NCBI GenBank assembly: GCA_024230675.1
Contig: JAAERE010000079.1
Location: 1-55,318, forward strand
DNA length: 55,318 bases
Reading direction: 5' to 3'
From: a bacterium
GTDB lineage: Bacteria; Zixibacteria; MSB-5A5; GN15; FEB-12
Shown here: positions 12,476 through 48,489 of the stretch, in pieces
Layout of the letters: each line of letters begins with the position of its first letter
Position numbering within the stretch: position 1 is the first letter of the stretch
Notes under the pieces: generated by a model
Databases searched by the model: none
Told to the model about the DNA's origin: nothing
The model's input: only the letters and a program-made list of their open reading frames with translations
Translations under genes and position numbers: made by a program

Positions 12476-13825
12476 CTAGTGTCGAATGAGCTGGTAGTCC
12501 TTGATTTTGGCTCTTAGCGTATTGCGGTGAATTCCGAGCTTTTCAGAAGTCAGACTGAGGTTCCAATCAAGCTGGTCCAGGCAGAGCCTGATATGATCTC
12601 GCTCGACCTCCGAAAGGGGCCTAACCCGCCCGCCGGCGCCCGGGGAAGAAAGCCCCGAAATGCCGCCGAGATCATCCGGCGTGAGAAACCGGGTATTGGT
12701 CAATACCAGGGCGCGCTCGATAATATTCTCCAGTTCGCGAACATTGCCGGGCCATGAGTATTTGGTGAGAAGCGCGGCCGCCTCGCTGTCGAGTCCGGCA
12801 ACCTCCTTGCCCACTCTCTTGGCGTGCTTTTCGATGAATTTCTCGGCCAGCAGGAGAACATCGCCGGTTCTCTCTTTCAGAGGAGGCAGGTGCAATTGGA
12901 TAACGTTCAGCCTGTAGAAGAGGTCCTCGCGGAATTTGCCGGCTTCGACCATCTTTTTGATATCCCGGTTGGTGGCGGCCAGCACCCGGATATCCAGCGA
13001 AATCTCTTTGACCGAACCCAGCCTCTCGATCCGCCGTTCCTCCAGAACTCGCAACAGCTTGACCTGCATGGTAAGCGGCATCTCACCTATTTCATCGAGA
13101 AAAAGCGTCCCGCCGTCGGCCAGTTCGAAACGTCCCTGCTTGGCTCGATCGGCACCGGTAAAAGCCCCCCGTTCGTAGCCAAACAGTTCGGATTCCAGAA
13201 GCGTGTCGGGGAATGCGGCGCAGTTGATAGCCACCAGCCTCTTGTCGGCGCGGTCGGAAATAGCGTGAATCGCACGGGCCACCAGTTCCTTGCCGGTGCC
13301 CGAGGGACCGGTGATAAGAACCGTCGCTTCGCGGGGGGCCACCAGGGTAATCATCTTCTTGATCTGCTGAATGGCCGGGCTTTCACCGATTATCTCCGAC
13401 GATGGGAAAATCTCCGTCAACCTCTCCGTCATCACACGATTGTCAACCACCAGGCGGTTCTGAGCGGCGGCCTTGTCGAGCTTCATAAGGAGCTCTTCGA
13501 GGTCCTCAACCGGCTTGGTCAAATAGTCATAGGCCCCGGCCCGCATCGCTCCCACGGCCGACTCCACCGATCCAAAGGCCGTTAGAACGATCACCTGAAT
13601 AAACGGGTTGACCTCGCGAAGTCGCCGCAGCAATTCCATACCGTCCATGCCGGGCATCTTCATGTCAATCAGAGCCAGCGGTGAAAAAACCGAATGGTAC
13701 TGTTCCAGCGCATCCTCGCCGGACTCGGCTTCCGTAACCTTATATCCCTTGTCGGTCAGAAAGCCCGCCAGCAGGGCCCGCTGACCGGCCTCGTCATCGA
13801 CTATGAGCAGTTTGGGACGATCCAT
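12476..13825 (-). CDS. Sigma-54-dependent response regulator (REC - AAA+ sigma-54 interaction domain - Fis-type HTH), NtrC family
   Basis: 449 aa. Receiver [13 protein letters not shown], Walker [17 protein letters not shown] (the GAFTGA loop), and C-terminal [21 protein letters not shown]. Confidence 0.93.
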
Positions 13826-22004: not shown

Positions 22005-22029
22005 CGTCGAAGAGTAAGGCAACAAGAAT

Positions 22030-22049
22030 GCCCACCCGACCGGGTGGGC
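22030..22049 (-). terminator. Strong GC hairpin, possible terminator of the HU / bS22-like transcription unit
   Basis: GCCCACCCG-AC-CGGGTGGGC. On the minus strand it is followed by AUUCUUGUUGCC. It lies 148 nt downstream of the bS22-like stop codon. Confidence 0.4.
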
Positions 22050-22196
22050 AAATATTCTTGATATCAAATGACAACCCGTTGGCTATGCGAGCCTTACAGA
22101 TTGCATCCCCGATGGTGACCGTCTGAGGGGGGTCTGTTGGTGTCCCTCCTGAGGAAATTAGTTCCAGAATCCAGCGGATAGTTTTTCCGTTATCGC

Positions 22197-35024: not shown

Positions 35025-35894
35025 TTACCCCTCAAAACCGATACGGTTGCGCGCCGAAGAGCGAATGTGATCCATCAAGGTGGAGAAGTGGAAGTCACCC
35101 AGCAGACGGTTCAGCTTGATTTCCAGCGTATCGGTTGACCCGTAGGTTCTGAATCGCTGTAGCATCGTCAGGCCGGTTATCGGAGGTGGCTGGGGATCGA
35201 TTTCCCACGGGTGGACGTAAACCATAGCCGGCCGGCCCTGGTCGTTCAGTTTGCGGATCATCCGGCGGGAATACCAGTACGGTGAGTGCCTAAGATATCC
35301 GCCGCCGCCCAGGGGAAGGTTCTGACCGAAAAGGCGGTGGGTTGAGGCCGGGACTTCATAGAGATACTTACCGCTCTCCAACCTCATTTTGAACAGTTCA
35401 CGAGGACCATCGGGCATGCCGTAAATGTCATGTTTGATGGGAAAGATAGAACTGTCGTACTCGAAGCCAAACTCCCCCAGGATTTCGAAGGCCCAGGTAA
35501 CGTCCTCGTTGATGGACCAACTGGGAGCCCGGTAGCCAAGCGGCCGAAAACCGGAAGTGTTCACTATAGCTTCAAGGGCCCGTTCGGTGTCCTCCCGAAA
35601 AACCTCCGGTTCGAGCTGGTCTACCCGGCGATGTCGATAACTGTGGCAGCCGATCTCGTGGCCGTGGTCGGCGATGCGGCGCATCAGGTCCGGGTGGCGC
35701 TCAGCACACCAGCCGACGATAAACCAGGTAGCCTGAACATCGTGGCGGCGAAACAGAGCCAGCAGGCGTTCGCAGTTTCGTTCCAGGGTAGTGGGCAGGC
35801 CGGGCCAGTCTTCGAATCTGATCCTGTCGGCCAGACTCTCGACCACAAACCATTCTTCGAGATCAACGGTGAGTACGTTCGATTGGCGTTTCAT
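35025..35894 (-). CDS. Polysaccharide deacetylase family protein with DUF3473-type C-terminus (PEP-CTERM/XrtA-locus subfamily-like)
   Basis: 289 aa. LTVDLEEWF, ATWFIVGWCAERHPDLMRRIADHGHEIGCHSYRH, YRAPSWS, GGGGYLRHSPY. Confidence 0.8.
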   Translation of the reverse strand: MKRQSNVLTVDLEEWFVVESLADRIRFEDWPGLPTTLERNCERLLALFRRHDVQATWFIVGWCAERHPDLMRRIADHGHEIGCHSYRHRRVDQLEPEVFREDTERALEAIVNTSGFRPLGYRAPSWSINEDVTWAFEILGEFGFEYDSSIFPIKHDIYGMPDGPRELFKMRLESGKYLYEVPASTHRLFGQNLPLGGGGYLRHSPYWYSRRMIRKLNDQGRPAMVYVHPWEIDPQPPPITGLTMLQRFRTYGSTDTLEIKLNRLLGDFHFSTLMDHIRSSARNRIGFEG

Positions 35895-35911
35895 GGTTCA
35901 GGGAGGGGTGG

Positions 35912-36718
35912 TTATTTGGGGATTCGGTTCTTCCGGGGTGAATCGGTCTCTTTTTCCGATTGGTCGGTCTTGGAAGCCCGCACGGCGCCGGGGTTGTTTC
36001 GATTGTCAATCGGTTTGCCGCTGTCGTGGCGCTGACTGTAATCGTAGTTGTAGTGGCTGTAGTCGTAGTAGTAAGGCAGGCTTCCCTTGACGTTGTTCAG
36101 CACCACACCAAGGAGGTTGATCTGGCTGGAAGACAGAATATCAGCGGCTCGCTGGGCCACTTCGCGCGCCGTCGATCCGGCCTTCACGATCAGAACCGCG
36201 CCGTCCATCTCCTGAGCCAGCAACATGGGATCCGAGACGGGAATGACCGGCGGAGTATCAACGAACACGAAATCATAATAGAATTTCAGTTCGTGGACCA
36301 GCCCCCCGATTATCCTTGAGTCGAACAGTTCCGTAGGGTGCGCCACGGCCTTGCCGGCGGTAATAATATCAAGATTGTCGAGCGAGGTTTTTTTGACGAC
36401 GCTTTTGACCTCATCGCCGTTATGTAGCACCTCGGACATTCCCTTGCCTCGCTCGCAGGCGAACAGTCGATGTACCGAGGGCCGTCTCAGATCACAGTCT
36501 ATCAACAGCGTCTTATGACCCTTGTAAGCAGCTGTGATGCTCATTAGCGAGGCCACGGTCGACTTGCCCTCGGAAGTAATGGCCGAAGTAAAGAGGATCG
36601 ATTTGAGGTCCGCCTCCTTCCCCTTTCTCTGAAACGTGTGCAGGAGGCGGCGAAACTCCGTGGCTACCGGAGACTCGAGCGAGTAATAGTCAATGAGCGG
36701 CATCGATGGACGAGCCAT
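35912..36718 (-). CDS. Stand-alone bacterial tyrosine (BY) kinase catalytic domain (CpsD/CapB / EpsG-like)
   Basis: 268 aa. Walker A SAITSEGKSTVA, A' LLIDCDLRRP, Walker B FVFVDTPPV, and a C-terminal Tyr cluster LPYYYDYSHYNYDYS. There is no transmembrane segment. Confidence 0.85.
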   Translation of the reverse strand: MARPSMPLIDYYSLESPVATEFRRLLHTFQRKGKEADLKSILFTSAITSEGKSTVASLMSITAAYKGHKTLLIDCDLRRPSVHRLFACERGKGMSEVLHNGDEVKSVVKKTSLDNLDIITAGKAVAHPTELFDSRIIGGLVHELKFYYDFVFVDTPPVIPVSDPMLLAQEMDGAVLIVKAGSTAREVAQRAADILSSSQINLLGVVLNNVKGSLPYYYDYSHYNYDYSQRHDSGKPIDNRNNPGAVRASKTDQSEKETDSPRKNRIPK

Positions 36719-36729
36719 ATGGAATTGTC

Positions 36730-37854
36730 CTATCTCTTCCCGGTTATTTTTCCGACCGCTTCGTCGATTACTCGACGAACCTGGTCAGACTGGTTCAGGG
36801 CTTCCGTCACACCCGGCAGAGAAGAATTCATCTCAGCCGTTTTGCGGAACTGCTCTACTCCCTTACGCCAGACTAGCCGGGAGTGTTCCAGATAACAGTG
36901 GGCCAATTCGGCCTGGAGGTCAACGTAAGTTGGATTGCGGCCCAGCTCCCCTTCCAAAAAACCGATGCGGTCAACCAGTGATCTTTCCGACACCAGACCC
37001 GGGGAGGTAACGAATCTCATGTAATAAGCCGAGAATTCCTTGCGCCGGCTTTCTTTGCGTGCATCTCTTATCTCCCGGAAGAGAATGAGCGCGCGGCCTC
37101 TATCGCCGGTCTTCAGCGCCTGCAGCCCGTCTTCAAAGTCACTTCTCTTCTTGAACTCAGGATAGATCAGCGAAGCCTTGTGCAAATAGCCGGTTATTCT
37201 CTCGACCGAGGGAGCAGCTCCTCCCGACGGTCCGGCGTTGATCGAAGCCAGGAGATGCGCCAACCCCAGATTAAGGTAGGCGTCGCCGTAATACATGTTG
37301 ACGCTTATCGCCTCCTGGAACTCGCCAATGGCCGCTTCAGGATTGTTGTCGGCCAGATAGGCCTCACCAAGGCTGTTGCGATAATCAGCGTAACCTGGTC
37401 GAGCCGCAACCGCGCGGCGGGCGGCCTCGACCGCTTCGTCAAAACGCCCCAGGGCGAGGTAGGTCATTCCCAAATAGTTGGCAGACTGATGGTGTCCGGC
37501 TCTCAACTGCTCCGCCTGTACAAAAAGGCGGGCGGCCTCAGTGAAAAATCGTTTATAGAAAAAGGCCGTGCCGAGCTGGTAGGTCGTGTCCGGGTCGCCC
37601 TGCTGCACGACCTCGCTGTAAGTCTGTAGCAGCGTCTCAACTTCCTTCTTTTTCTCCCCGTGAGTGAGCTTAACCAGCGAAAGGACTTCCTGCGGGTCTG
37701 ATTCCGCAGGATGGGGACAGCTGACGGTCTCGGCCTGGACGCCGTCAACAAAGATGGTAGTGGAGACTGAGCCTACCGAAGGATCGTTGGTCGTGTGGAT
37801 GAGATACTCGCGGTCGTCTTCTCTAAGCTTGCTGTTAATACGATAGGTTTCCAT
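36730..37854 (-). CDS. Cytoplasmic TPR-repeat protein
   Basis: I prefer the ATG at 37854 (METYRINSK...), because the track start at 37863 is a TTG. Several TPR units (ANYLGMTYLALGRFDEAVEAARRAVAARPGYADYRNSLGEAYL...). No signal peptide or TM segment is evident. Confidence 0.75.
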   Translation of the reverse strand: METYRINSKLREDDREYLIHTTNDPSVGSVSTTIFVDGVQAETVSCPHPAESDPQEVLSLVKLTHGEKKKEVETLLQTYSEVVQQGDPDTTYQLGTAFFYKRFFTEAARLFVQAEQLRAGHHQSANYLGMTYLALGRFDEAVEAARRAVAARPGYADYRNSLGEAYLADNNPEAAIGEFQEAISVNMYYGDAYLNLGLAHLLASINAGPSGGAAPSVERITGYLHKASLIYPEFKKRSDFEDGLQALKTGDRGRALILFREIRDARKESRRKEFSAYYMRFVTSPGLVSERSLVDRIGFLEGELGRNPTYVDLQAELAHCYLEHSRLVWRKGVEQFRKTAEMNSSLPGVTEALNQSDQVRRVIDEAVGKITGKR

Positions 37855-37945
37855 ACGCCTCAAACAGTTTCCCGATTGTTACTTCATAACGTCCCTGACT
37901 CCTCGATAGTTCTCTATCGGGCCCGGGAAAAGCACAGCGGGAGGC

Positions 37946-38917
37946 CTACAATTCCCGGATGAGGAAGACGGTAGTGGTAAGCACTCCCAGGACCGTGGCC
38001 ACGCCGGTTAAGCCACCTGAGAAGAAACCGGACCGCTGAGTCGGGACGACAAACATATCTTCCTTCTGCATTATGTATCGGACCGGACGTCCGGTTTGTG
38101 AGTATTTCTCGAGGTCAAAACGTACCGTCTGAGCAAACCGGCCGTCTTTCAGGATCAACTGAGTCTTTCTCAGATCGGCGTCAGCGGTCGGACCGCCGGC
38201 CAGGGCCAGCGCCTCAATAACGTCGATACCCTCTTCGTATTTAATCGGCCCCGGTGAGGAAACCGCCCCGATAACATATATCAGATTCTTCTTCTCGGTG
38301 CTCTGCCCCACCTCGGCCGCCAGCACCTGCCCGGGTGTCCTCGGAATCTCAATCGTGTCCTGTCGGCGGACTTTTGGCAGATCGGAGAGCCTGCCTTCGG
38401 CTATCGCCTGGCTGATGTTTACGACCTCAATCTCTCCCGCCTGATCGCCGCCGCGAATAATCGTCACCCGGCTGAGATCGCCCAGTTCACCAACGCCGCC
38501 GGCCTCGTTGATCAGGGTCCACAGGTCGGGAATTTCCTCGAAAGCCAGCTTACCGGGAGAATTGACCTGGCCGATCACGAATACATGATTGTGATAATAT
38601 CCCGAGACCCTCACAGTGGCCTGAGAGATATTCTCTTTGAGGCGCGACATAAGGCGCACAATATCGGTCTGCAACTCCTCGGTCGTCTTCCCGGCGGCCT
38701 GGATCTGACCGATGATGTCCAGCGTGATCCTGCCGTCAAGGCCCACCGTGACCTGAACGTTCAGGCCCGGATCCTGCCAGAAGCTGACGTCAATGACATC
38801 CTCCACACCGATACGATATTCTGCCGCCATCAATTGACCGACAGCCAGTCCGGATAGCAGAAGCGCTACCGCCGCGACCTTAACAATCCCTGTTAACCAC
38901 AGACGTTTCATGTCCAT
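37946..38917 (-). CDS. Polysaccharide export protein (Wza/EpsE-like: Poly_export + SLBB domains, C-terminal helix)
   Basis: 323 aa. Signal sequence, then YRIGVEDVIDVSFWQDP...VTVGLDGRITLDIIGQIQAAGKTTEEL, an SLBB-like IYVIGAVSSPGPIKY, and a C-terminal hydrophobic helix GVATVLGVLTTTVFLI. Confidence 0.85.
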   Translation of the reverse strand: MDMKRLWLTGIVKVAAVALLLSGLAVGQLMAAEYRIGVEDVIDVSFWQDPGLNVQVTVGLDGRITLDIIGQIQAAGKTTEELQTDIVRLMSRLKENISQATVRVSGYYHNHVFVIGQVNSPGKLAFEEIPDLWTLINEAGGVGELGDLSRVTIIRGGDQAGEIEVVNISQAIAEGRLSDLPKVRRQDTIEIPRTPGQVLAAEVGQSTEKKNLIYVIGAVSSPGPIKYEEGIDVIEALALAGGPTADADLRKTQLILKDGRFAQTVRFDLEKYSQTGRPVRYIMQKEDMFVVPTQRSGFFSGGLTGVATVLGVLTTTVFLIREL

Positions 38918-38978: not shown

Positions 38979-39007
38979 AATATAGACCCGGTGTTGACGA
39001 GTGTAAA
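38979..39007 (-). promoter_or_regulatory. Sigma-70-like promoter candidate for the polysaccharide-export operon
   Basis: Minus strand reads TTTACA (39007-39002), a 17-nt spacer, then TATATT (38984-38979). Confidence 0.45.
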
Positions 39008-39064: not shown

Positions 39065-40687
39065 TCAGGCAACAATGTACTTGTTGCGGCCGGCCTCTTT
39101 TGCTTTCAGCAGGGCCATATCGGCGGCGAATATGAGCTGTTCGGAGTTTTCTCCATGGTCGGGAAAGACCGCCCCCCCCTGGGAAATAGTGAAAACGAGG
39201 TCTGTGGTAATCTGATCGAATCTGAACTTGGAACCAACAATTTTCCGCTGCAGGCGGTCCATAAACTGGCGGCAGGTCGCCCGGTCGGATTCCGGCATAA
39301 CCACGCAGAACTCGTCGCCCCCGTAGCGCGCAATTACATCGATAGACCGAATCGACAGTCTCAGGACTTCGCCAATACGTTTGATGACAGCATCGCCGGC
39401 CTGGTGGCCGTAACGATCGTTGACGCTCTTCAATTCATCGAGATCGAAGATAATCAGCCCCAGCGAACGCTGGTATCGTTTGGCGCGATCGATCTCTTCC
39501 TCCAGACGTCTCAAGAAATAGCGGCGGTTGGCCAGACCCGTCAGATTGTCCGTGAACGACAGCTCTTCGACCTTCTCAAACGAGACCGCATTCTCCATCA
39601 GGTGGCCGGCGCTAGTCTCGTGTCGGCGCAGTTGCATTTGGATCTCGGCGGGCTTTCGACTATCGTTCCAGGTCATTATTCCGGCGCGGCCCTCGGTCAG
39701 GGGGAACTTGGAGAGATACATAAGCCCGGCTTCCTGCAGTTTCTCGCCCCAGGCGGCCGCCTCCGCCCCGTGATCTTTCAACTGCCCCACGGATATCCAC
39801 CCGTTGACCGACAAGCGCCCGACCAGATCGGCGAATTTCTCATGGCGAGGCGGTTCGAACTGACGGGTCGTGCCCGCTTCGACTATCCGCAGAGGATCGG
39901 ATGCACATTTGGGCTCGTACAGGAAAGCCATGCTCTCCAGACCTATGTCTTTCTGCATCTCTTCCACAATCTCTCCAACGAGAGTCTCGGAATTGCGGTG
40001 TCGAACCAGCTTTAGCACGCCCATCGCGGGTGCCTTACTCTCGACCGCACGCGCCAAGGCCTCGTTCTCTGCCTCCGCGACGCGGTCCTGCAGTTTCCCG
40101 AATTTGCTCTCGTGCCAACGAATGTGATAGGCCGCCGACAGGGATTGCGCCAGGGCCGCCACAAGGAGCTTGAACGAAGGCGTCCGCGTTTCAATAGAAC
40201 TTCTGATGAAATACAGGCCGTACAGGTGATCCCGCCAGAATATTGGGAAATACAGATCGCATTTCCATTCGTGCAGTTTGCGACAGAGATTTTCCGGCAG
40301 ATAGCTCTCCAGATCGGAGACTTCCTCGGGGAAAACCTGACCTCTCAATCGATTGACCAGATCGTCCGAGTATCGGGTGCGGAGGTCCTTCCGGTCAAAT
40401 CGACTAATGCCGTGGAAATAGTTCAGATCAAGAGACCGCCGCCGCTTCCGCAAAAAGAGAATGATCTCACAGCCACAGGCGTGTTTGAGAAGGTCGGATA
40501 CTTTGCCAGCCACGTCCTGAATCGAGCCTTCAAGACAGTTGGTGCGCAAGAAATCGGAGAATTCTTCCAGATCCATCCTGGCTATTGCGGCCAGACGACG
40601 CCTCTCTGACCTGATTCGGATCAGCAGGATCGTGGCAAGAATCACCACAAGAACGATGAGAAATATGACCAGCACGGTCTGCGTCAT
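39065..40687 (-). CDS. Membrane-anchored diguanylate cyclase (TM - GAF-like sensory region - GGDEF with I-site)
   Basis: 540 aa. N-terminal TM VLVIFLIVLVVILATILLI. GGDEF domain LTGLANRRYF...IIFDLDELKSVNDRYGHQAGD...RSIDVIARYGGDEFCVVM, with the RxxD motif five residues before GGDEF. Confidence 0.9.
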   Translation of the reverse strand: MTQTVLVIFLIVLVVILATILLIRIRSERRRLAAIARMDLEEFSDFLRTNCLEGSIQDVAGKVSDLLKHACGCEIILFLRKRRRSLDLNYFHGISRFDRKDLRTRYSDDLVNRLRGQVFPEEVSDLESYLPENLCRKLHEWKCDLYFPIFWRDHLYGLYFIRSSIETRTPSFKLLVAALAQSLSAAYHIRWHESKFGKLQDRVAEAENEALARAVESKAPAMGVLKLVRHRNSETLVGEIVEEMQKDIGLESMAFLYEPKCASDPLRIVEAGTTRQFEPPRHEKFADLVGRLSVNGWISVGQLKDHGAEAAAWGEKLQEAGLMYLSKFPLTEGRAGIMTWNDSRKPAEIQMQLRRHETSAGHLMENAVSFEKVEELSFTDNLTGLANRRYFLRRLEEEIDRAKRYQRSLGLIIFDLDELKSVNDRYGHQAGDAVIKRIGEVLRLSIRSIDVIARYGGDEFCVVMPESDRATCRQFMDRLQRKIVGSKFRFDQITTDLVFTISQGGAVFPDHGENSEQLIFAADMALLKAKEAGRNKYIVA

Positions 40688-40725: not shown

Positions 40726-40753
40726 ATAATAACCAATTACAGGGAATTGTCAA
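40726..40753 (-). promoter_or_regulatory. Sigma-70-like promoter candidate for the GGDEF gene
   Basis: Minus strand reads TTGACA (40753-40748), a 16-nt spacer, then TATTAT (40731-40726). Confidence 0.45.
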
Positions 40754-40769: not shown

Positions 40770-41450
40770 TCAAGTGCGCCCCCAAGCGTAGCGGAACCGT
40801 GATCTCTTGCGAAGCAGGTTATTTCTTTTCAGGATGAAGAAGATTCTCCACCAACCCGCGGGCTGCTCCGAACTACGATTTTTGAGCTCCCGCCTGATCT
40901 CGGAGATGGTTACAAAAGGATCGTTCTTGACCATTTGCAGAGCCACCAACTCGGGGTCTTTCTCCACCTCCGCCGAAGGAGCTATATACGCCTCGGTACG
41001 GGCCACACGTCCGTCATCGGCCGCGGCGGCGACCTCTTCCACCACTGTCAGTTTTGTCGGGGCCCCTTTTTTTTTTCCGCCGGTCGGCGCCTGGCCCCTT
41101 CCGAACCGCTCCACGGCATCGTCCACCGAGGTGAAGATCTGAAGCACCTTATCAAACTCCAGCAGTTCGAAAATCTCGTGAACATCCGGTACCATACCGG
41201 CCAACTTGATATCCCCCGCGTTGGAGCGAACGTCCTTGATATGGGAGATAAAAATCCCCCAGCCCGCGGAAGAGATATAGTCGACGCCGGCTAAATCAAT
41301 AACGATCTTGTAGCGCCCCCGACGCAGCAGAGAGTCAATAACCTGCTCGAGTTCGTTGGCCGTCAACGTATCCACGACTCCGTCAACGCGAATCTCGGAG
41401 ACTTCACGGTCGTGGCCGCTCTCAGATAAAGAAATACTAATGTTTTCCAT
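40770..41450 (-). CDS. STAS-domain anti-sigma-factor antagonist-like protein with ~110-aa C-terminal extension
   Basis: 226 aa. STAS core IRVDGVVDTLTANELEQVI...IVIDLAGVDYISSAGWGIF...LAGMVPDVHEIFELLEFDKV, with a conserved phosphorylatable Ser in DYISSAG. After it come a Lys/Gly linker and a basic tail (ISEIRRELKN...LKRNNLLRKRSRFRY). Confidence 0.8.
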   Translation of the reverse strand: MENISISLSESGHDREVSEIRVDGVVDTLTANELEQVIDSLLRRGRYKIVIDLAGVDYISSAGWGIFISHIKDVRSNAGDIKLAGMVPDVHEIFELLEFDKVLQIFTSVDDAVERFGRGQAPTGGKKKGAPTKLTVVEEVAAAADDGRVARTEAYIAPSAEVEKDPELVALQMVKNDPFVTISEIRRELKNRSSEQPAGWWRIFFILKRNNLLRKRSRFRYAWGRT

Positions 41451-41526: not shown

Positions 41527-43584
41527 CTAAAAACTTCCTTCCTCGCCGGTTCCGGACTCCGGCAGGGTTCGGCTGTCGAGGGTTTGTTCGTCCAGTTCCT
41601 CGTCGTCCTCACGGTCCTCTTTAACGGCCACTGTTCGTCCCACCACAAAGGTTATGTCATCCCGTTGCGCCGCAAAACCGGAAAAGCTGTCGACCCTGTC
41701 AATAATCTCTTTGGACAGAGCCTTGAGTTCCGATTTGCGGTCGGCCTCCTGCCACCCCTGCAGGAAGTCAATCATACGCTCCAGGCCGTACTGATTGCCC
41801 TCGCGATCGACGGCCTCGGTAATTCCGTCGGTATAAATGAAGAACAGGTCGCCCTCGTCGAGTTGCAGGTCAAAGCTCTCCAGGGAATCGCCGAAGTCCT
41901 TTGCCAGGGTCACCGGCACGCCAAGGGGCATACCGGAGGGATTCAGCTTCACAACTTTGCGCGTGGCGGCCTTGTACAGCAACAGCGGGTTGTGTCCGGC
42001 CGAGACAAAGTCAAGTTTACGGGTCGAGGAGTCGAATATCGCCATGAGCACCGTAACAAACATACCGCGCGGCATGTTTCCCGAGAGGTAATCGTTGACC
42101 GACAGTAACGTATCCCGGGCCGAGGCAGAGCCCTGCGCAAAGATCCTGATCACCGTTCGCAGCATCGACATAACCAGCGAGGCGGGCACGCCTTTGCCGG
42201 AGACGTCCGCGACAACCAGACAGCAGCGACTGCCACCGATATCGAAAATGTCATATAGGTCTCCACCTATCATGGAGGCGGCGCGGTAAAAGGCGTCGAT
42301 CTCAAGACCCGGCAGATGTGGCAGGCGCACCGGGAGGAGGGTCTTTTGAATCTGCGAGGCGACCTCAATTTCCTTGGCCATTCTCTCGCGTTCGATCGCG
42401 CTTTCGCGGTCGCGCCTGAGACGCGTCATCATCTCGTTGAGGGCGCTCGAAATCTCGAAAAACTCGGCGGCGCCTTCAAGAGGCAGCTCGCTCTCAAGAT
42501 CGCCCGAAGAAAACCGTCGGACCCTACGGGTGATCGCCACGATCGGCTTCACGAAATAATTAGACAGTAGGTAGATACCCACAATGCCAATCACCAGCAG
42601 CAAGCCTGTGAACTGAAGGATTTTCTCTTTGGCGAGCTGTAAACGCTGCTGAACCAGTTCGGAAGAATATGTCAGATAGGCTGAGCCCAGCTCCCGGTTT
42701 CCGGCGCGTATAGGCAAAATCAGGTAGTTGGTTTCTCGGTTCTCTATCCGCCAGCGTTGCGGCGCAGATTGGAAGCCCGGGTCCGCCTCCGGGGGATATT
42801 GATAGGGTCTCCGGATATTGTGGATATCGTCCGAGTGGGCCAGAATGACGTTCGAGGAGTCGGTTAGTACGATGCGCTTGAGCACCGGGTTGGAAGTATA
42901 ATAGCTAATGACGAGTTCGTCGAACTCCACGTCACTGCGGCGGTTGATGATATACAGGCCGGCCTGTTCAGCCAGTGTTTTGCCGAGGGCGGCCACGGTT
43001 CCGTCGAGATAATTGTATACCTCGCGCGAAGATCGATCGTTGATGAAGTAGTAAGCCGTCCCGATAAGAATGCTCACGATAACCAGCGTCCAGAACGAGA
43101 ACTTGGCGCGTAACGTAAACATACGGCGCAACAGCGGCGGCGTGGCTGACCCGGCCTCCGCCCCCAGCCATTTGGTCATCCTCAGTTCGTTCTGCCCGGC
43201 CGAAGACACATATTCCACCGAATCCATGATCTTCTGGATCATGTAGAAGCCAAGACCGCCGCGTCGTCCGGACTCCACCAGCCGGTTCAGGTCGAGCTTG
43301 CCGGTACCTTCCGGCCGGAACGAACGTCCGGTATCTATCAACGAGAAACTGATAAGCTTTTTGTAGGTGACGATCCGCAGTCGGATGCTTCCCTTTTCAT
43401 AAAGGTAAGCGTGACGAATGATATTCGTGGCGCCTTCTTCGATAGCCAGGAGAACGGCCGATACGTACTTGCGATTCATACCGGCAGCGGTACAGACCTC
43501 GCGCACGATACGTTGGATGCTGTCGAGGTACTTCTCTTCCGCCTGAAACTCGGCGTTTATCTCCTTTGTTGGACGACGGAACAT
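41527..43584 (-). CDS. Fusion protein: RsbW/SpoIIAB-like Ser kinase (HATPase_c) - TM - extracytoplasmic region - TM - HAMP - PP2C/SpoIIE phosphatase
   Basis: 685 aa. Kinase motifs EEGATNIIRHAY, IDTGRSF, GGLGFYMIQKIMD. TM segments FWTLVIVSILIGTAYYFI and LLLVIGIVGIYLLSNYF. PP2C motifs GGDLYDIF, VVADVSGKGVPAS, IYTDGITEA, QRDDITFVV. Confidence 0.8.
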   Translation of the reverse strand: MFRRPTKEINAEFQAEEKYLDSIQRIVREVCTAAGMNRKYVSAVLLAIEEGATNIIRHAYLYEKGSIRLRIVTYKKLISFSLIDTGRSFRPEGTGKLDLNRLVESGRRGGLGFYMIQKIMDSVEYVSSAGQNELRMTKWLGAEAGSATPPLLRRMFTLRAKFSFWTLVIVSILIGTAYYFINDRSSREVYNYLDGTVAALGKTLAEQAGLYIINRRSDVEFDELVISYYTSNPVLKRIVLTDSSNVILAHSDDIHNIRRPYQYPPEADPGFQSAPQRWRIENRETNYLILPIRAGNRELGSAYLTYSSELVQQRLQLAKEKILQFTGLLLVIGIVGIYLLSNYFVKPIVAITRRVRRFSSGDLESELPLEGAAEFFEISSALNEMMTRLRRDRESAIERERMAKEIEVASQIQKTLLPVRLPHLPGLEIDAFYRAASMIGGDLYDIFDIGGSRCCLVVADVSGKGVPASLVMSMLRTVIRIFAQGSASARDTLLSVNDYLSGNMPRGMFVTVLMAIFDSSTRKLDFVSAGHNPLLLYKAATRKVVKLNPSGMPLGVPVTLAKDFGDSLESFDLQLDEGDLFFIYTDGITEAVDREGNQYGLERMIDFLQGWQEADRKSELKALSKEIIDRVDSFSGFAAQRDDITFVVGRTVAVKEDREDDEELDEQTLDSRTLPESGTGEEGSF

Positions 43585-43633: not shown

Positions 43634-45457
43634 CTAGTTGTCGGAGTCCTGGGCCCCCATGCGGAGCCGGGCCTGCTCGATATTGTTCAAAGTGTTGGGG
43701 TTGTTGGGGTATTTTGCCAGCACTTTTTGCCAGGCCTCTATGGCCTGCTGATATTCTTTGTTGCGCATGAACCTCAGACCGTCGAGATAGAGGCTCCATA
43801 TCTCAGCATCGTTCTGGAGGTCCTCAAGCGTCGCCGTCCGAGTCTGCGCTTCCTGAATCCTGTTGAGATAGTCGAGCGCCGTAGCCTCGTTCGGATTGAC
43901 GTCGAGAATTGCTCGGAACTGGGTCTTGGCAGCCTCATAGCGACCCTTCTCAAACATCTCTATGCCCAGCCTGATTTTCTCGGGCAGCCCCATGGTGGCC
44001 AAAACCTGCTGCTTGGATTGACTGGCACCTTCGTTGTCCGGATCGACATCCAGAATACGATTGTACGCTTCGATCGCCTCAACGAGACGCCCGGCCTCCC
44101 ACGCCTGCCGGGCGGTCTCGAAGTTGGCTGCTATTTCGTCCGACATGGACTGTCGTATCTGACGCTGAAGCTGCTGCGCCCGGTAATTGTCGGGATCGAT
44201 GTCAAAGATCAGTTCCAGAAGGTCGAGCGACGCCCGGTAGTGGCGCTGCGCGTACAGTTGGCCGGCCTGAGTTAAGAAGCCGCCCAGCGTCTGATTGAGC
44301 TCTTCCTGAGCCTCGAACAACAGCGTTTCCTGTTCTCGCTGTTTCCGTCTGGCCTCCTCGATGGCCGCTATCGATCCGATTATCTCCCGGTTGTCGGGCT
44401 GGTACTTCAGCGCTTCGCTGAAGAAGTAAGTCGCCGAGTCAAGGTGGAAGCGATGCAGATACAGATTGCCCTGCTCCATAAGCGCGGCGAACTGTTTTTC
44501 CTCCTCCGTGGGCTCCGGAGGCAGTGCCGCTATTTCCTTCAGACGTATCTGCTCCGAGACCGAATTCCCTATGAGGAATGACAGTGAGAAGTGGTGGATA
44601 TCGCTAACATAGTCGACGAGTTTGTAGGCATAGTCCACCTTGAGCCGTCGGTATTTAAGCCCCGCTCCAAACGACACATTGTCTCGGTCGTACCCCAGTC
44701 GCAGAGCAAAGGACCTGTGAAAATCTATTTCGGCACCGGCCCGCACTTTGAGATCGCGGTCTTCAGTCTTCTCAAGGTCGACAGCCGCGGTAAGCTGGAC
44801 GTACTCGGACACTGCCAGATCGGACAATGACAGTCCACCGACAACCGACACCGGCGTGCGTTCCGATGTGGCCTGTAGTTGAAGCTCCGGGGCACGAATG
44901 TCTCTAGCCATGACGCCCAAAGCGAGATGGCGATGTATTTTAGCGGTCAATCCCAGATCGAGGCCTATACCAAAATCAGTATGACCCGCCAGAGACTGAC
45001 GCAAGATCTTCAGACTCGTGCCAATCGCAAAGCGGTTCCCCAGCGACCGGCCGTAGGAGAGCAGCGACTGGGAGTAGGCGTAATGGAAAGCCCCACGGTC
45101 CAAATAGTCCACACGTCGGGTGATGTCCTCGGTGCCCAGGCGCATTATGCCAATGCCCAGGCCGTGGTGGTCTCCGATCGGATAGACCCACGAGACAACG
45201 TCGTAAATGCTGCCTTCCAGCAGAACAGTGTGCATGGCAGCGAATTCCTGAAACTCAAGAGAGGAGAGCCCCGACGGGTTGTAATAGAGCGATGTGGCGT
45301 CGTCGGCCATCGACACGAAACCGCCGCCCATGCCCAGCGGACGGGCACCGGCGCCGATAGCGAACGGCGTCTCCCTTCCAGCGTCTCCCGCCTGGGCCGT
45401 GCTGATACAGACCGACAAAAGAAGCACCAGGGCGATGTATTTCGATACTCTCATCAT
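43634..45457 (-). CDS. Outer-membrane beta-barrel (PorV/PorQ/UPF0164-like) fused to a ~300-aa C-terminal TPR region
   Basis: Start at the ATG at 45457, or at 45454, overlapping the stop codon of the upstream gene (ATGA). Signal peptide MMRVSKYIALVLLLSVCISTAQA. N-terminal motif GAGARPLGMGGGFVSMADDATSLYYNPSGLS. The C-terminal half consists of TPR units (ALKYQPDN, IFDIDPDN, ILDVDPDN, ILDVNPNE, LAKYPNNP). Confidence 0.65.
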   Translation of the reverse strand: MMRVSKYIALVLLLSVCISTAQAGDAGRETPFAIGAGARPLGMGGGFVSMADDATSLYYNPSGLSSLEFQEFAAMHTVLLEGSIYDVVSWVYPIGDHHGLGIGIMRLGTEDITRRVDYLDRGAFHYAYSQSLLSYGRSLGNRFAIGTSLKILRQSLAGHTDFGIGLDLGLTAKIHRHLALGVMARDIRAPELQLQATSERTPVSVVGGLSLSDLAVSEYVQLTAAVDLEKTEDRDLKVRAGAEIDFHRSFALRLGYDRDNVSFGAGLKYRRLKVDYAYKLVDYVSDIHHFSLSFLIGNSVSEQIRLKEIAALPPEPTEEEKQFAALMEQGNLYLHRFHLDSATYFFSEALKYQPDNREIIGSIAAIEEARRKQREQETLLFEAQEELNQTLGGFLTQAGQLYAQRHYRASLDLLELIFDIDPDNYRAQQLQRQIRQSMSDEIAANFETARQAWEAGRLVEAIEAYNRILDVDPDNEGASQSKQQVLATMGLPEKIRLGIEMFEKGRYEAAKTQFRAILDVNPNEATALDYLNRIQEAQTRTATLEDLQNDAEIWSLYLDGLRFMRNKEYQQAIEAWQKVLAKYPNNPNTLNNIEQARLRMGAQDSDN

Positions 45458-48400
45458 TTGAGCACCGCCACTTTCAATACCGCCTGGGCACCTGTCCACT
45501 CGTCGGTCAGAACCGCCAGGTAAACGCCGTTGAGGACCATCTGCCCTCTATCGTTGCGCCCATCCCATTCAAGTGTCCGAGAACCGGTGAGACCCTCAGC
45601 GGGAAGCGTCTTGCGATACACGATCTCTCCGGAAAGGGTTAGAATCCTGAATACGATCGTGCCCGCTTCCGCCTGAAAGAACTGGAACTCGGCCGGACGA
45701 GAAAGCGGGTTGAACGGGTTGTCTCGAATAATGAACGACCCCACAAGATCGGCAGCTACCGTAGTAAAAACCTCGCTGACCACCTCTTCCTCACCGCTCT
45801 GGCTGCTGATCTCAACTTGCTGCCCCCCTATGGGACCGGAGGCAAAAACGGCCTTTATGTCTTCCATCATCAACGAGACGCCAAAGACGCCGCCAGCATT
45901 GGCAAGTATCCTGGAGCGCAGCACCAACTCAACGGGTGAAGTGCCGTTGATGATGTAGTCTTCGAATGTGAGATTGAGACGATTACCACCGGCAGTGGCC
46001 CGGGTGACTTCGCGTAAACCGTCGAACAATCCGGTACTCCCCACCTCCAGCACAGACCTCACGCTGACGGGCTGTCCTTCGGCATCCTTAAGGGCAAACG
46101 ACATCGATTGCATCGCGACGGCTGTTACCGAGGACGTGCCTTTGTTGTCGAGAACCAGGCGAATCAGATCGCGGGTTTTGCCGGGGAAAACAACGTTTGG
46201 AAGAACCGGTTCGGCTGAGACGAGCAGCTCCAAATCCTCGGAAAGCACGGCCAGATTGGTCTCAAACTCGGTCTCACCGATTTGCGCGGGTAGACCCGTG
46301 TTTATGTCCAACGGGATTTCTGTTAGCCCGAAGTTGATCGTTAGGGAAGTGTCGAAGGATGGCGCCAGGAACTCAATACCGGCCGGCTGGCCAACCTCCA
46401 CCGACAGGACGAGCGGGTCGGGGACGCCCAGATCCAGACCGTTGGTGGTGAGAGTGAATTCACCGTCGGAGGTCTCGGCCTCACCGCTGTTAACGATGGT
46501 CAGGATCAGATCAAAGTCATCGTTGACCGTCACATAGCCATCGCTGGCCCCGCGCAACAGAACGGACACCGTCAGGAGCGCCGGTTCCTGGATCATAGCC
46601 TGAGCTATGTTGTCGATAGGCGGCAGTTGATTTACCCCCAGGCTGGTTATGTCTACGCGGAAGATCTCGGAGGCATTGGCCACCGGAGAGGCCTGCACGA
46701 CAATGAAAGAATCTATAACGCTCTCGCCGGGCACGCCGGGGATAGTGTGGTCGGACTCAAAGACGGAAGCGCCGTCCGATACCAGGCGGATATTGAAAGG
46801 TGGTTGGTCTGTCGTTGACAGATTGGCGATCCGGAAAGAAATCCTGAATTCCTGATTCGTATTTACGTTTGGGCTATTGGGCGCTACTACAGAGACTTCG
46901 GTTATCTGCACAGTTGGTAGTTCTTCGACCACCACAGCCTGGCTGTCGAAGTCGGTCGTGAAGGTCAGCCAATTGGCTGAACCCTCCCTATGGAACGTGA
47001 CTGTGGCCGCAACTTCCAGGGAGTCACCCAGATGACTGGGGGGAATGAACACCTGGCCCGTCGTCACATGATTGAGTCCGGGGATTAGTGAATCGCCTTC
47101 CACCACCAGACTGGCGGCCGCAGAAAAACTCCCGCCACTGATCAGGAACCAACTCAGGTCGTAGTCCAAGTGCACCGGAGACGACCCGCCCAGCGAGAAG
47201 TCGAATTCGAAGGTTGATTCCTGGCCAGAGGACACCTCAACCGGACCGAAACTGCCCGGCACATACCCGAGAGCGGGAGCGAGTAACAGGAACAGGGAAT
47301 CGGTCGGGGATGGGTCCAGACAAAATACGCTGCCTCCCGACGACAATCGAAAGTCCAGTCTGACGTCGAACCAACCCTCGGTCAGACCAAGACTGGAATC
47401 GACCATGGCTTCCAGATCGGCATAGCTTATTATCGAGTCTTCAAACGCCGCGTATTTCGGCGAGCCATCGTATATAGTTGCGATTACGGAGTCGGAAGCG
47501 CTCACCAGATGAACCGCCAGGCTGGTGCTGTCGATCGGGCCGGCAAAACCGCCGGTGGACACATCGAAGGACATATCGAACGAAACCCCGACGAACACAG
47601 ACTCGGGCACCAGGGAACCCTCGACAAGGCCGAAGTCAGCCGAGGGCAGGATTGTGACCGGCGTTCGCACCGTATCGGTGACCGCCAGCAGGCTGTCGGC
47701 GGGTTGGTAGGCGCTTTCCAATACCAGGACCAGCGTATCTTCCCCCGCGCTCAGGCCGGTTGTTGGCAGATCAATCTCCAGCGTATCCTGCATACCGCTG
47801 GTCTTGGGAGGGAAAAAGACTTTCACCGAGCCGCCGCCTGAAGCAAAAAACGCCTTCAATGTAGGCTCGGACTCGGCCAAAAGATCCCCGCCGTTTGATA
47901 CAGGTACCTTGATGGTAGCCGGCAGATCAGAGTAAACGCTTTCAACGGGATCGCCAAGGCGGTCGAAAACCGACAATATCTCGTAGCCGCTGTAGGAGAC
48001 CAGCGTCGACAGCGAAGAAACGCCTGAATTGGATGCGGTTATGGCGACCGTCCCGGAGGAGCCCTCATAAACCACGCCCAGCGGCAAAAAGTCTACTACT
48101 CCTGCCGCAAAGAGACTGGAGTCGCTAATGACATCCGGCGCTAGCAGCCCGGAGTCCGGGGCCAATTGGATAGGATCCCCGGCAAAATCATAGTCGGTCA
48201 CCAAAGCGGAGTTTTCATCGAGCAACAACACTCGAGCCGTACCGTGCAGAGGATAGCCGACTACCTGTTCGGATGCGATCTCAAGAACTAGTCGATCCAA
48301 AGCCTCAGCCTCGAACACCGCGGCGCCGGAGTCTGCGGCTGCTTGAGAAGTAGTCGCGTGACCGGATTCGCGGGACTGGGCGAAGGTTGTTTGAGACGTG

Positions 48401-48489
48401 ACAAAAAGCGTCAGCGTCAGCCAGAGGATTGCGAGCAGGATATGTTGCGCTCTTTTCACCAAATCAACTTTGTTTAGCGTGCAAAACAT
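45454..48489 (-). CDS. Large acidic Ser-rich secreted surface protein (tandem Ig/CARDB-like beta-sandwich regions) with T9SS-type / FlgD-Ig-like C-terminal domain
   Basis: 1011 aa. Signal peptide ...LTLTLFVTSQTTFAQS. C-terminus IRDNPFNPLSRPAEFQFF...IVFRILTLSGEIVYRK...LEWDGRNDRGQMVLNGVYLAVLT...LKVAVLK. I recognise no catalytic motif. Confidence 0.7.
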   Translation of the reverse strand: MFCTLNKVDLVKRAQHILLAILWLTLTLFVTSQTTFAQSRESGHATTSQAAADSGAAVFEAEALDRLVLEIASEQVVGYPLHGTARVLLLDENSALVTDYDFAGDPIQLAPDSGLLAPDVISDSSLFAAGVVDFLPLGVVYEGSSGTVAITASNSGVSSLSTLVSYSGYEILSVFDRLGDPVESVYSDLPATIKVPVSNGGDLLAESEPTLKAFFASGGGSVKVFFPPKTSGMQDTLEIDLPTTGLSAGEDTLVLVLESAYQPADSLLAVTDTVRTPVTILPSADFGLVEGSLVPESVFVGVSFDMSFDVSTGGFAGPIDSTSLAVHLVSASDSVIATIYDGSPKYAAFEDSIISYADLEAMVDSSLGLTEGWFDVRLDFRLSSGGSVFCLDPSPTDSLFLLLAPALGYVPGSFGPVEVSSGQESTFEFDFSLGGSSPVHLDYDLSWFLISGGSFSAAASLVVEGDSLIPGLNHVTTGQVFIPPSHLGDSLEVAATVTFHREGSANWLTFTTDFDSQAVVVEELPTVQITEVSVVAPNSPNVNTNQEFRISFRIANLSTTDQPPFNIRLVSDGASVFESDHTIPGVPGESVIDSFIVVQASPVANASEIFRVDITSLGVNQLPPIDNIAQAMIQEPALLTVSVLLRGASDGYVTVNDDFDLILTIVNSGEAETSDGEFTLTTNGLDLGVPDPLVLSVEVGQPAGIEFLAPSFDTSLTINFGLTEIPLDINTGLPAQIGETEFETNLAVLSEDLELLVSAEPVLPNVVFPGKTRDLIRLVLDNKGTSSVTAVAMQSMSFALKDAEGQPVSVRSVLEVGSTGLFDGLREVTRATAGGNRLNLTFEDYIINGTSPVELVLRSRILANAGGVFGVSLMMEDIKAVFASGPIGGQQVEISSQSGEEEVVSEVFTTVAADLVGSFIIRDNPFNPLSRPAEFQFFQAEAGTIVFRILTLSGEIVYRKTLPAEGLTGSRTLEWDGRNDRGQMVLNGVYLAVLTDEWTGAQAVLKVAVLK

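Follow-up and report, generated by a model that had tools for sequence, protein, structure and literature searches.

A membrane protein of Zixibacteria with an RsbW-type kinase and a PP2C phosphatase on either side of a Cache-like sensor, encoded beside a STAS protein

We analysed a stretch of 55,318 nucleotides from a Zixibacteria genome (the window; contig JAAERE010000079.1 of assembly GCA_024230675.1), which encodes a 685-residue protein, here called the fusion, in which an RsbW/SpoIIAB-type serine kinase, a transmembrane sensor and a PP2C/SpoIIE-type serine phosphatase follow one another in a single chain. Both antagonistic catalytic domains are intact and face the cytoplasm from a transmembrane Cache-HAMP sensor, and a phosphorylatable STAS protein is encoded beside them. 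The interpretation we favour, with a probability of roughly 0.65, is that the fusion is a dimeric, signal-gated bifunctional STAS kinase/phosphatase of the inner membrane, which would follow the logic of Vibrio fischeri SypE but with a Cache-HAMP input, and with a diguanylate cyclase and exopolysaccharide (EPS) as its output. Whatever in this scheme exceeds sequence, fold and synteny, we infer. The gene and its parts, including the first and second transmembrane segments (TM1 and TM2), are as follows.

41527..43584 (-), whole fusion gene, 685 residues from an ATG start (open reading frame and Pfam), in the order kinase, TM, Cache, TM, HAMP, PP2C
43171..43548 (-), RsbW/SpoIIAB-type serine kinase domain, residues 13-138 (Pfam HATPase_c_2)
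43039..43101 (-), TM1, about residues 162-182 (hydropathy; model helix 158-214)
42622..43038 (-), periplasmic single-Cache (sCache_3-like) domain, residues 183-321 (model and Pfam matches of the family)
42556..42621 (-), TM2, about residues 322-343 (hydropathy peak 2.38; model helix 309-359)
42412..42570 (-), HAMP, residues 339-391 (Pfam E 6e-10, 39.7 bits against a cut-off of 25)
42232..42411 (-), helical linker from HAMP to PP2C, residues ~392-451 (model helix 369-416)
41635..42231 (-), PP2C/SpoIIE serine phosphatase domain, residues 452-650 (Pfam)

An earlier note on this DNA had placed the open reading frame (ORF) of the fusion at 41527..43584, and we recovered it exactly, on the minus strand. 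Every motif listed there (LAIEEGATNIIRHAY, LIDTGRSF, GGLGFYMI, GGDLYD, DVSGKG, TDGITE and DDIT) was found in the translation. Its calls of HATPase_c, HAMP and SpoIIE, in that order, agree with Pfam, which sets HATPase_c_2 at residues 13-138, HAMP at 339-391 and SpoIIE at 452-650, all above their gathering scores. The start codon appears to be correct, since the N-terminus MFRRP(T/I)KEINAEF is kept in homologues. NCBI entry P0001 is identical to the fusion protein and carries the sole annotation 'SpoIIE family protein phosphatase'.

Pfam, motif alignment and fold concur in making the N-terminal ~140 residues an RsbW/SpoIIAB-type kinase, as the earlier note had proposed. The HATPase_c_2 match (E 5e-23; 81.9 bits, cut-off 27.4) spans all 127 positions of the profile. 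On alignment to the solved RsbW structure 6m36 the N-box, DxGxSF and GGLGxY motifs coincide, and Foldseek matched the domain to the RsbW chains 6m37/6m36 with target TM-scores of 0.90-0.93, placing it in the Bergerat fold. Residues E50, N54, H58, D84, G86 and G112 are identical across 41 fused proteins, and the ATP-lid set as a whole (E50, N54, H58, D84, G86, G109-G112) is invariant or nearly so in these 41 sequences. The NCBIfam profiles for RsbW (E 9e-17, 60.9 bits, cut-off 145) and SpoIIAB (28 bits, cut-off 135) both match at scores that fall short of the equivalog level. Judged by sequence, the domain is a member of the RsbW/SpoIIAB family and an orthologue of neither.

The C-terminal domain matches SpoIIE with an E of 3e-44 (151.6 bits against a cut-off of 25). 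Its Foldseek matches are Rv1364c (3ke6), RssB, SpoIIE and the PP2C domain of SiaA (6k4e, target TM-score 0.82), with E of about 1e-13 to 1e-14 against 3ke6, 5ucg and 6k4e. Residues D442, D445, D460, G463, D586, G587, D642 and D643 are invariant in the fused orthologues wherever the column is present, and the metal-binding aspartates match in pattern D457, D474, D600 and D653 of SiaA. Thus Pfam, PP2C fold and invariant aspartates agree with the earlier description of a PP2C/SpoIIE domain with all its metal-binding motifs. The presence among the top structural matches of the phosphatase-like domain of RssB, an inactive PP2C, lends some substance to the idea that one catalytic domain of the fusion is kept for binding alone, leaving the protein effectively monofunctional. 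We regard this as very improbable, however, given that the ATP-lid residues and metal aspartates are all invariant over 41 sequences that are only 28-40% identical overall.

Kyte-Doolittle hydropathy was used to locate the TM segments, and helices of the AlphaFold2 model run unbroken through both hydrophobic stretches. The two TM helices of the earlier note are therefore upheld, but the loop between them measures ~139 residues and not the ~150 given there. Basic residues flank the segments on their cytoplasmic sides (RRMFTLRAK ahead of TM1, KPIVAITRRVRR behind TM2), and a juxtamembrane basic motif ahead of TM1, R154..L158 R159. K161 F162 S163, consists of invariant columns. Because the number of TM segments is even, the charges follow the positive-inside rule and both enzymes need the cytoplasm, we predict that the enzymes are cytoplasmic and the loop periplasmic.

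The AlphaFold2 model, made with 24 homologues in the alignment, has a mean pLDDT (predicted local distance difference test) of 74 and a pTM (predicted template modelling score) of 0.42. Its low-confidence stretches are the tether from kinase to TM1 (142-156) and part of the HAMP region, and with these and the pTM the relative arrangement of the domains is not fixed. The loop at 183-321 is the most confident part (pLDDT 80-90); in it a long helix that prolongs TM1 is followed by another helix, a sheet of five strands and a helix leading into TM2, a layout which in the model is that of a single-Cache/PDC domain. All 16 of the 16 family loop sequences tested match Pfam sCache_3_2 (best E 4.6e-9), among the family values being E 2.8e-6 for an orthologue in locus L013; the window's own loop scores E 0.0077 and 16.7 bits, below the cut-off of 28.4. 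Invariant motifs in the loop include RSxxEFD and AHSxD. A loop profile gave no match to PDB sequences, even at E 10. Taken together, the Pfam matches across the family and the model provide good but not formal support for a Cache-like loop. The HAMP-like linker that the earlier note put after the second TM helix is likewise found by Pfam, above cut-off and right behind TM2. As for the helical linker beyond it, we infer its role in signal relay from the coiled-coil linker of RsbU-type PP2C phosphatases (PMC12143880).

The architecture extends well beyond this contig. The three Pfam domains of the fusion, and with them its architecture, recur in 120 of 120 close homologues among the matches listed (58-100% identity), whose source names, where given, are mostly Zixibacteria or GN15 metagenome-assembled genomes (MAGs). 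When 1.84 billion cluster representatives were searched exhaustively with a profile, 83 of the 150 best clusters at 50% identity matched over the full length from kinase to PP2C, with total lengths from 644 to 2253 residues; the next-best matches were unfused TM-sensor-HAMP-PP2C relatives of ~500 residues, starting at profile position ~152. GTDB species genomes were also scanned and their domains mapped, yielding a set of 40 fused loci in which the fusion is a single ORF, drawn from Zixibacteria, KSB1, Latescibacterota, Krumholzibacteriota, Eisenbacteria, FCPU426, Calditrichota, Spirochaetes and Omnitrophota. The fusion spans at least 8 phylum-level lineages. Two TM segments lie between the enzymes, and the catalytic sets of both are invariant, in all 40. 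In loci farther removed, such as those of Planctomycetota, the arrangement is the classical one of separate genes, ordered PP2C, kinase, STAS.

One Riflebacteria locus (L065, 5992-8377) holds a kinase ORF of 136 residues and a TM-sensor-PP2C ORF of 660 residues, which overlap by 8 nucleotides and stand in the order of the fusion. This split pair is likely a pre-fusion or post-fission state, and, since it keeps the halves as overlapping ORFs in the same order, it indicates that they work as a pair. Such split versions, of which L038 (two ORFs in different frames) is another, might be taken to mean that the fusion is a merger of two neighbouring genes made during assembly or gene calling. Against this, the frame is unbroken in the window, in the 120 listed homologues, in the 40 GTDB genomes and in 83 of the 150 top clusters. 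We rejected a two-gene merger, the reading frame being intact in hundreds of independent assemblies, and consider its probability negligible. Because the fusion is uninterrupted and keeps invariant catalytic residues in many lineages, we conclude from these sequences that it is genuine, old, widespread and selected for both activities.

Some of the fused orthologues are considerably longer. Behind the PP2C domain they carry an HTH_23/28 domain (HTH, helix-turn-helix) and an HTH_21/32-like module, to which some add TPR repeats or three STAS domains. Fusions of the Latescibacterota/Krumholzibacteriota type (L013, 5974-10380; L014, L033, L039 and L045) reach ~1400-1470 residues with extra HTH domains and three STAS stretches, bringing kinase, sensor, phosphatase and substrate-like domains into one chain, and have two more small STAS genes behind them. 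In KSB1 and Calditrichota (L015, L018, L021, L025 and L036; ~1180-1470 residues) the chain ends in a cytoplasmic TPR array and also has HTH modules; this TPR-ended type comprises more than 100 clusters, MAGs throughout.

The predicted substrate of the fusion is encoded 76 nucleotides downstream, and most by far of the fused loci with downstream flank have a STAS gene behind the fusion. Its features in the window are:

40770..41450 (-), STAS protein (predicted substrate), 226 residues, with the STAS domain at 17-112 and a disordered linker at 119-161
41268..41270 (-), codon of Ser61, the predicted phospho-acceptor (alignment to SpoIIAA Ser58)
40785..40955 (-), C-terminal basic four-helix module, residues 166-222 (AlphaFold model)

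That a STAS protein carrying DYISSAG lies at 40770..41450 had been claimed in the earlier note, and both the gene and the motif are there, the domain being identified by Pfam (STAS, E 2.5e-18). The protein also scores 65.1 bits against the NCBIfam anti-sigma factor antagonist family TIGR00377, above the cut-off of 53.45, and its model matches SpoIIAA/RsbV with target TM-scores of 0.86-0.91 in Foldseek. The DYISSAGWGIFIS motif is invariant among the aligned STAS proteins; DYISSAG is exact in 26 of 26 aligned from Zixibacteria and in many of those encoded behind a fusion. Ser61 aligns with Ser58 of SpoIIAA, which we take to be the phosphorylation site of that protein.

Beyond the STAS domain, and behind a disordered linker of ~45 residues, comes a confidently modelled, very basic four-helix tail (DPF..GWW..SRFRY), which is kept in the STAS proteins of Zixibacteria, KSB1, Calditrichota, Eisenbacteria and FCPU426. 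Isolated tails give only sub-threshold Pfam matches, to HTH_21/HTH_32, and the window's own tail gives no match. By hhalign the tail is homologous to the second HTH-like module behind PP2C in the long orthologues (97%, E 2e-10). A fold search of the STAS model returned STAS-domain matches alone and did not identify the tail module by structure. In two Zixibacteria genomes (L001:3024-3726 and L002:8138-8823) the STAS domain and the C-terminal module are split between two ORFs that differ in frame, reflecting either MAG frameshift errors or a genuine separation of modules. The tail consensus RRSRFR (residues ~214-220, 40770..40820 (-)) fits the pattern RRxxxR, which recalls the arginine motif in PilZ receptors of cyclic di-GMP (c-di-GMP), and a diguanylate cyclase gene adjoins. 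This likeness may be due to chance, and no PilZ fold is present.

The fusion and STAS genes belong to a same-strand string, with housekeeping genes on both sides, that runs from a secreted protein with a FlgD_ig end, resembling the C-terminal domain of type IX secretion system (T9SS) cargo, through a PorV-like/TPR gene, the fusion, STAS and a cyclase to a Wza-like exporter and further EPS genes. The remaining features of the string are:

45454..48489 (-), secreted first gene, 1011 residues, CARDB-like region and C-terminal FlgD_ig (T9SS-CTD-like; Pfam)
43634..45499 (-), exported PorV/PorQ-family beta-barrel with a C-terminal TPR domain (NCBIfam PorV_fam and Pfam TPR)
39065..40687 (-), candidate effector, membrane-anchored diguanylate cyclase, 540 residues, GGDEF at 378-536 (Pfam E 3.5e-46)
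35025..38917 (-), EPS genes: Wza-like exporter (37946..38917), TPR protein, ParA/Wzc-like ATPase and DUF3473 polysaccharide deacetylase (Pfam)
35912..36718, ParA/Wzc-like ATPase, within these downstream EPS genes

None of these neighbours nor the Cache-like loop or the HTH-like STAS tail had figured in the earlier note. The PorV-like protein scores 112.1 bits against PorV_fam (cut-off 90), and the cyclase has its RYGGDEF motif and RSID I-site intact and matches NCBIfam SiaD with E 7e-44 and 150.1 bits, below the cut-off of 290. Gene order was read from a per-locus domain table, single-linkage clustering having merged PorV/TPR, fusion and STAS proteins through their shared TPR and STAS domains. 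Across phyla, a PorV-like/TPR gene lies right upstream of the fusion in most fused loci with upstream sequence, and a secreted FlgD_ig-type protein lies two genes upstream in 31 of the 40; these secreted proteins (L002-L045) have ~1000-1400 residues and a FlgD_ig end. The core conserved across phyla thus consists of a T9SS-cargo-like protein, a PorV-like/TPR protein, the fusion and a STAS protein with an HTH_21-like tail. Since cargo-like and PorV-like/TPR genes adjoin the fusion in most loci, this suggests a functional tie between an outer-membrane/secretion component and the fusion's sensor. Only 11 loci, of the Zixibacteria type, have the cyclase gene behind the STAS gene, and there Wza follows too. 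A ParA/MinD-type ATPase, a VWA protein and DUF4159 also recur in the neighbourhood; the ATPase (AAA_31) stands between fusion and STAS gene in L006-L009, L013, L030, L039 and L045 (for example L008:9003-9746), whereas the ParA/Wzc-like ATPase of the window lies farther downstream.

The order of kinase, sensor and phosphatase is less unusual than the earlier note held, SypE being already a protein with the order kinase, receiver (REC) domain, PP2C that acts on a STAS protein. SypE exerts post-transcriptional control, through the STAS protein SypA, within a polysaccharide locus; phosphorylation inactivates SypA, and N52 of the kinase is required (PMC3610818). The fusion resembles it, so far as SypE can be compared by description, in an N-terminal RsbW-like kinase of ~140 residues (N54 answering to N52), a regulatory module in the middle and a C-terminal PP2C, and the substrate in both would be a single STAS protein encoded in the same polysaccharide locus, the string of the fusion holding Wza, a Wzc-like ATPase and a polysaccharide deacetylase alongside the STAS gene. 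Unlike the fusion, SypE is soluble and its REC domain is fed by a phosphorelay. The fusion has TM-sCache-TM-HAMP with periplasmic input and no Pfam match to Response_reg (REC), and its STAS partner has the extra HTH-like tail and a GGDEF cyclase behind it.

The SiaABCD system of Pseudomonas aeruginosa, which governs aggregation and biofilm, comprises SiaA (two TM segments, HAMP, PP2C), the kinase SiaB, SiaC and the cyclase SiaD (PMC7647112). SiaA has the same layout as the C-terminal two-thirds of the fusion, whose residues 319-647 match the NCBIfam SiaA profile with 57.7 bits against 700, and in both systems kinase, STAS-fold substrate and diguanylate cyclase are encoded together. However, SiaB is a separate kinase, and SiaC has a divergent STAS-like fold, phosphorylated on Thr68, that is not Pfam STAS, whereas in the system described here the kinase is fused and the substrate a canonical STAS protein; the equivalog scores of SiaA and SiaD are not reached. 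HsbR and CrsR (REC-PP2C-kinase) and Mycobacterium tuberculosis Rv1364c (PAS-PP2C-kinase-STAS), the last of which the PP2C domain matches best in structure, likewise unite a phosphatase with an RsbW-type kinase in one chain and have a STAS partner. They differ in being soluble, with the phosphatase ahead of the kinase and the sensor N-terminal; the fusion has the reverse order and two TM segments. Chlamydia RsbU and other membrane phosphatases of the HAMP-PP2C kind have the layout of periplasmic sensor, TM and PP2C seen in the fusion, with the kinase as a separate gene. What is new in the fusion, then, is the TM-Cache-TM-HAMP module in the place of REC, and it would work like SypE and like a fused SiaB-SiaA pair while belonging to neither family. 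The earlier note had also called the flanked-sensor architecture uncharacterised, which stands insofar as literature searches gave nothing relevant on a membrane kinase-PP2C fusion, on enzymes flanking a periplasmic sensor or on partner switching in Zixibacteria; its rarity does not, the architecture being common in uncultured phyla of the Fibrobacteres-Chlorobi-Bacteroidetes (FCB) type.

These comparisons allow a mechanism to be proposed. The N-terminal kinase would use ATP to phosphorylate Ser61 of the STAS protein, as SypE, through its N-terminal domain, does SypA. A periplasmic cue, for which a small ligand and the periplasmic TPR domain of the PorV-like outer-membrane protein conserved alongside are candidates, would bind the Cache domain, and TM2, HAMP and a crossing helical linker would carry the signal on to the PP2C dimer and turn it on or off, as in RsbU-type phosphatases, for which a relay through a HAMP-linker-PP2C dimer is a general mechanism that includes the HAMP-linked ones (PMC12143880). 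TM1 may act reciprocally on the kinase, and such control of both enzymes is conceivable because TM1 leads from the Cache domain to the invariant juxtamembrane motif and on to the kinase. The output would be the ratio of STAS to STAS-P. In this Zixibacteria lineage, unphosphorylated STAS would act on the adjacent membrane-anchored cyclase, as SiaC does on SiaD; activation of the cyclase would raise c-di-GMP and drive Wza-type EPS export. By analogy with SiaC-SiaD, HsbA-HsbD and BgrU/BgrW of Sinorhizobium meliloti, the cyclase is the most likely target, this being the least certain step of the scheme. Nearly as likely is that the HTH_21-like STAS tail serves as the ancestral output or docking device, and it may act as a second output or docking module independent of lineage.

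Several observations weigh against this scheme. All homologues found are MAG-derived, and no cultured organism appeared among the matches listed, including those of a search with a Calditrichota-type orthologue, which returned MAG-derived proteins only. The low-confidence tether and the pTM of 0.42 leave the coupling and arrangement of the domains in the model unsettled, and reciprocal control in particular finds no support in that tether. The cyclase cannot be the ancestral output, because fusion, STAS and PorV-like genes are conserved far more widely than it is. It may, moreover, be transcribed separately, given a sigma-70-like promoter match (consensus match only) in the 82-nucleotide gap between the STAS and cyclase genes (40726..40753 (-); TTGACA, 16-nucleotide spacer, TATTAT, 11/12). 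Finally, the active form of the STAS protein varies among known systems, being unphosphorylated for SypA (PMC3610818) and phosphorylated for HsbA in its action on the cyclase HsbD, HsbA itself being acted on by HsbR (PMC6482189).

Of the other explanations for the output, we find most to say for one in which the cyclase is merely co-located, and phosphorylation-dependent capture of the STAS domain by the membrane kinase decides whether its tail can bind DNA or some other partner. Together with the fusion the tail is kept in phyla where the cyclase is absent; it forms a confident four-helix module behind a disordered tether with sub-threshold HTH_21/HTH_32 matches, and is homologous to a module that in long orthologues lies behind PP2C beside an HTH_23/28 domain. 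But those Pfam matches are under gathering scores and the window's own tail has none, HTH_21 is an 'HTH-like' domain for which DNA binding would be putative here, a copy on a membrane-anchored enzyme suits docking as well as DNA binding, and the fold search could not isolate the tail; we hold this explanation possible, with the odds clearly against it. Distinctly less probable is that the membrane-tethered RsbW-like domain holds a sigma factor encoded elsewhere, which dephosphorylated STAS displaces, the kinase activity doing no more than resetting the switch, so that the output is a sigma regulon and not c-di-GMP or the HTH-like tail. The domain is indeed most RsbW-like in sequence and fold, and among fused relatives CrsR and HsbR bind RpoS, whose gene does not adjoin theirs (PMC6482189). 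Yet neither the 55-kb window nor the gene families that recur around the 40 fused loci yielded a sigma factor gene, the STAS protein has an extra conserved module of its own, unusual in a pure antagonist, and SypE, the closest architectural precedent, works without a known sigma factor. We would give equally long odds to a reading in which the four-gene core is, as a whole, an undescribed form of trans-envelope signalling in FCB-type phyla: the PorV-like protein of the outer membrane would report, by way of its periplasmic TPR domain, the state of its surface cargo to the Cache domain, a TM1/TM2 piston would drive kinase and phosphatase oppositely, and the STAS protein would act through its HTH-like tail with no sigma/anti-sigma pair. 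If true, this would be a new kind of partner-switch output and of cell-surface signalling.

The domain recombination is in itself not very surprising, and what stands out is the breadth of its conservation, the constant pairing with a PorV-like/TPR protein of the outer membrane and the HTH-tailed STAS protein, features that jointly make up a coherent system. Partner-switching modules are usually sets of soluble proteins fed by phosphorelays or stressosomes; with both opposing enzymes on one transmembrane Cache-HAMP sensor, an extracellular cue could set STAS phosphorylation without an intermediate. The fusion family is large, entirely uncharacterised and annotated no further than as 'SpoIIE family protein phosphatase'. 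Its consistent PorV-like linkage, together with that to c-di-GMP synthesis and EPS export in Zixibacteria, makes it a plausible main switch by which abundant, uncultured bacteria of sediment and soil could govern their surface and biofilm behaviour. It would also serve as a compact natural scaffold in which one sensor governs two antagonistic catalytic domains.

Some minor features of the window may be added. Residues 1-370 of the cyclase comprise an N-terminal TM anchor and a cytoplasmic region of ~340 residues with no Pfam match, which is kept only in the closest Zixibacteria (L001-L005, L010), the cyclases of more distant Zixibacteria differing there N-terminally. Upstream of wza, at 38979..39007, there is a second sigma-70-like consensus match (10/12). 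An NtrC-type sigma-54-dependent response regulator is encoded at 12476..13825 (-), about 25 kb away and with no link shown; the V. fischeri syp locus is driven by a regulator of this type, SypG. A second large secreted protein (975 residues, 19140..22067 (-)) ends in matches to FlgD_ig, Por_Secre_tail and CHU_C, which indicates that the organism uses T9SS-type sorting signals.

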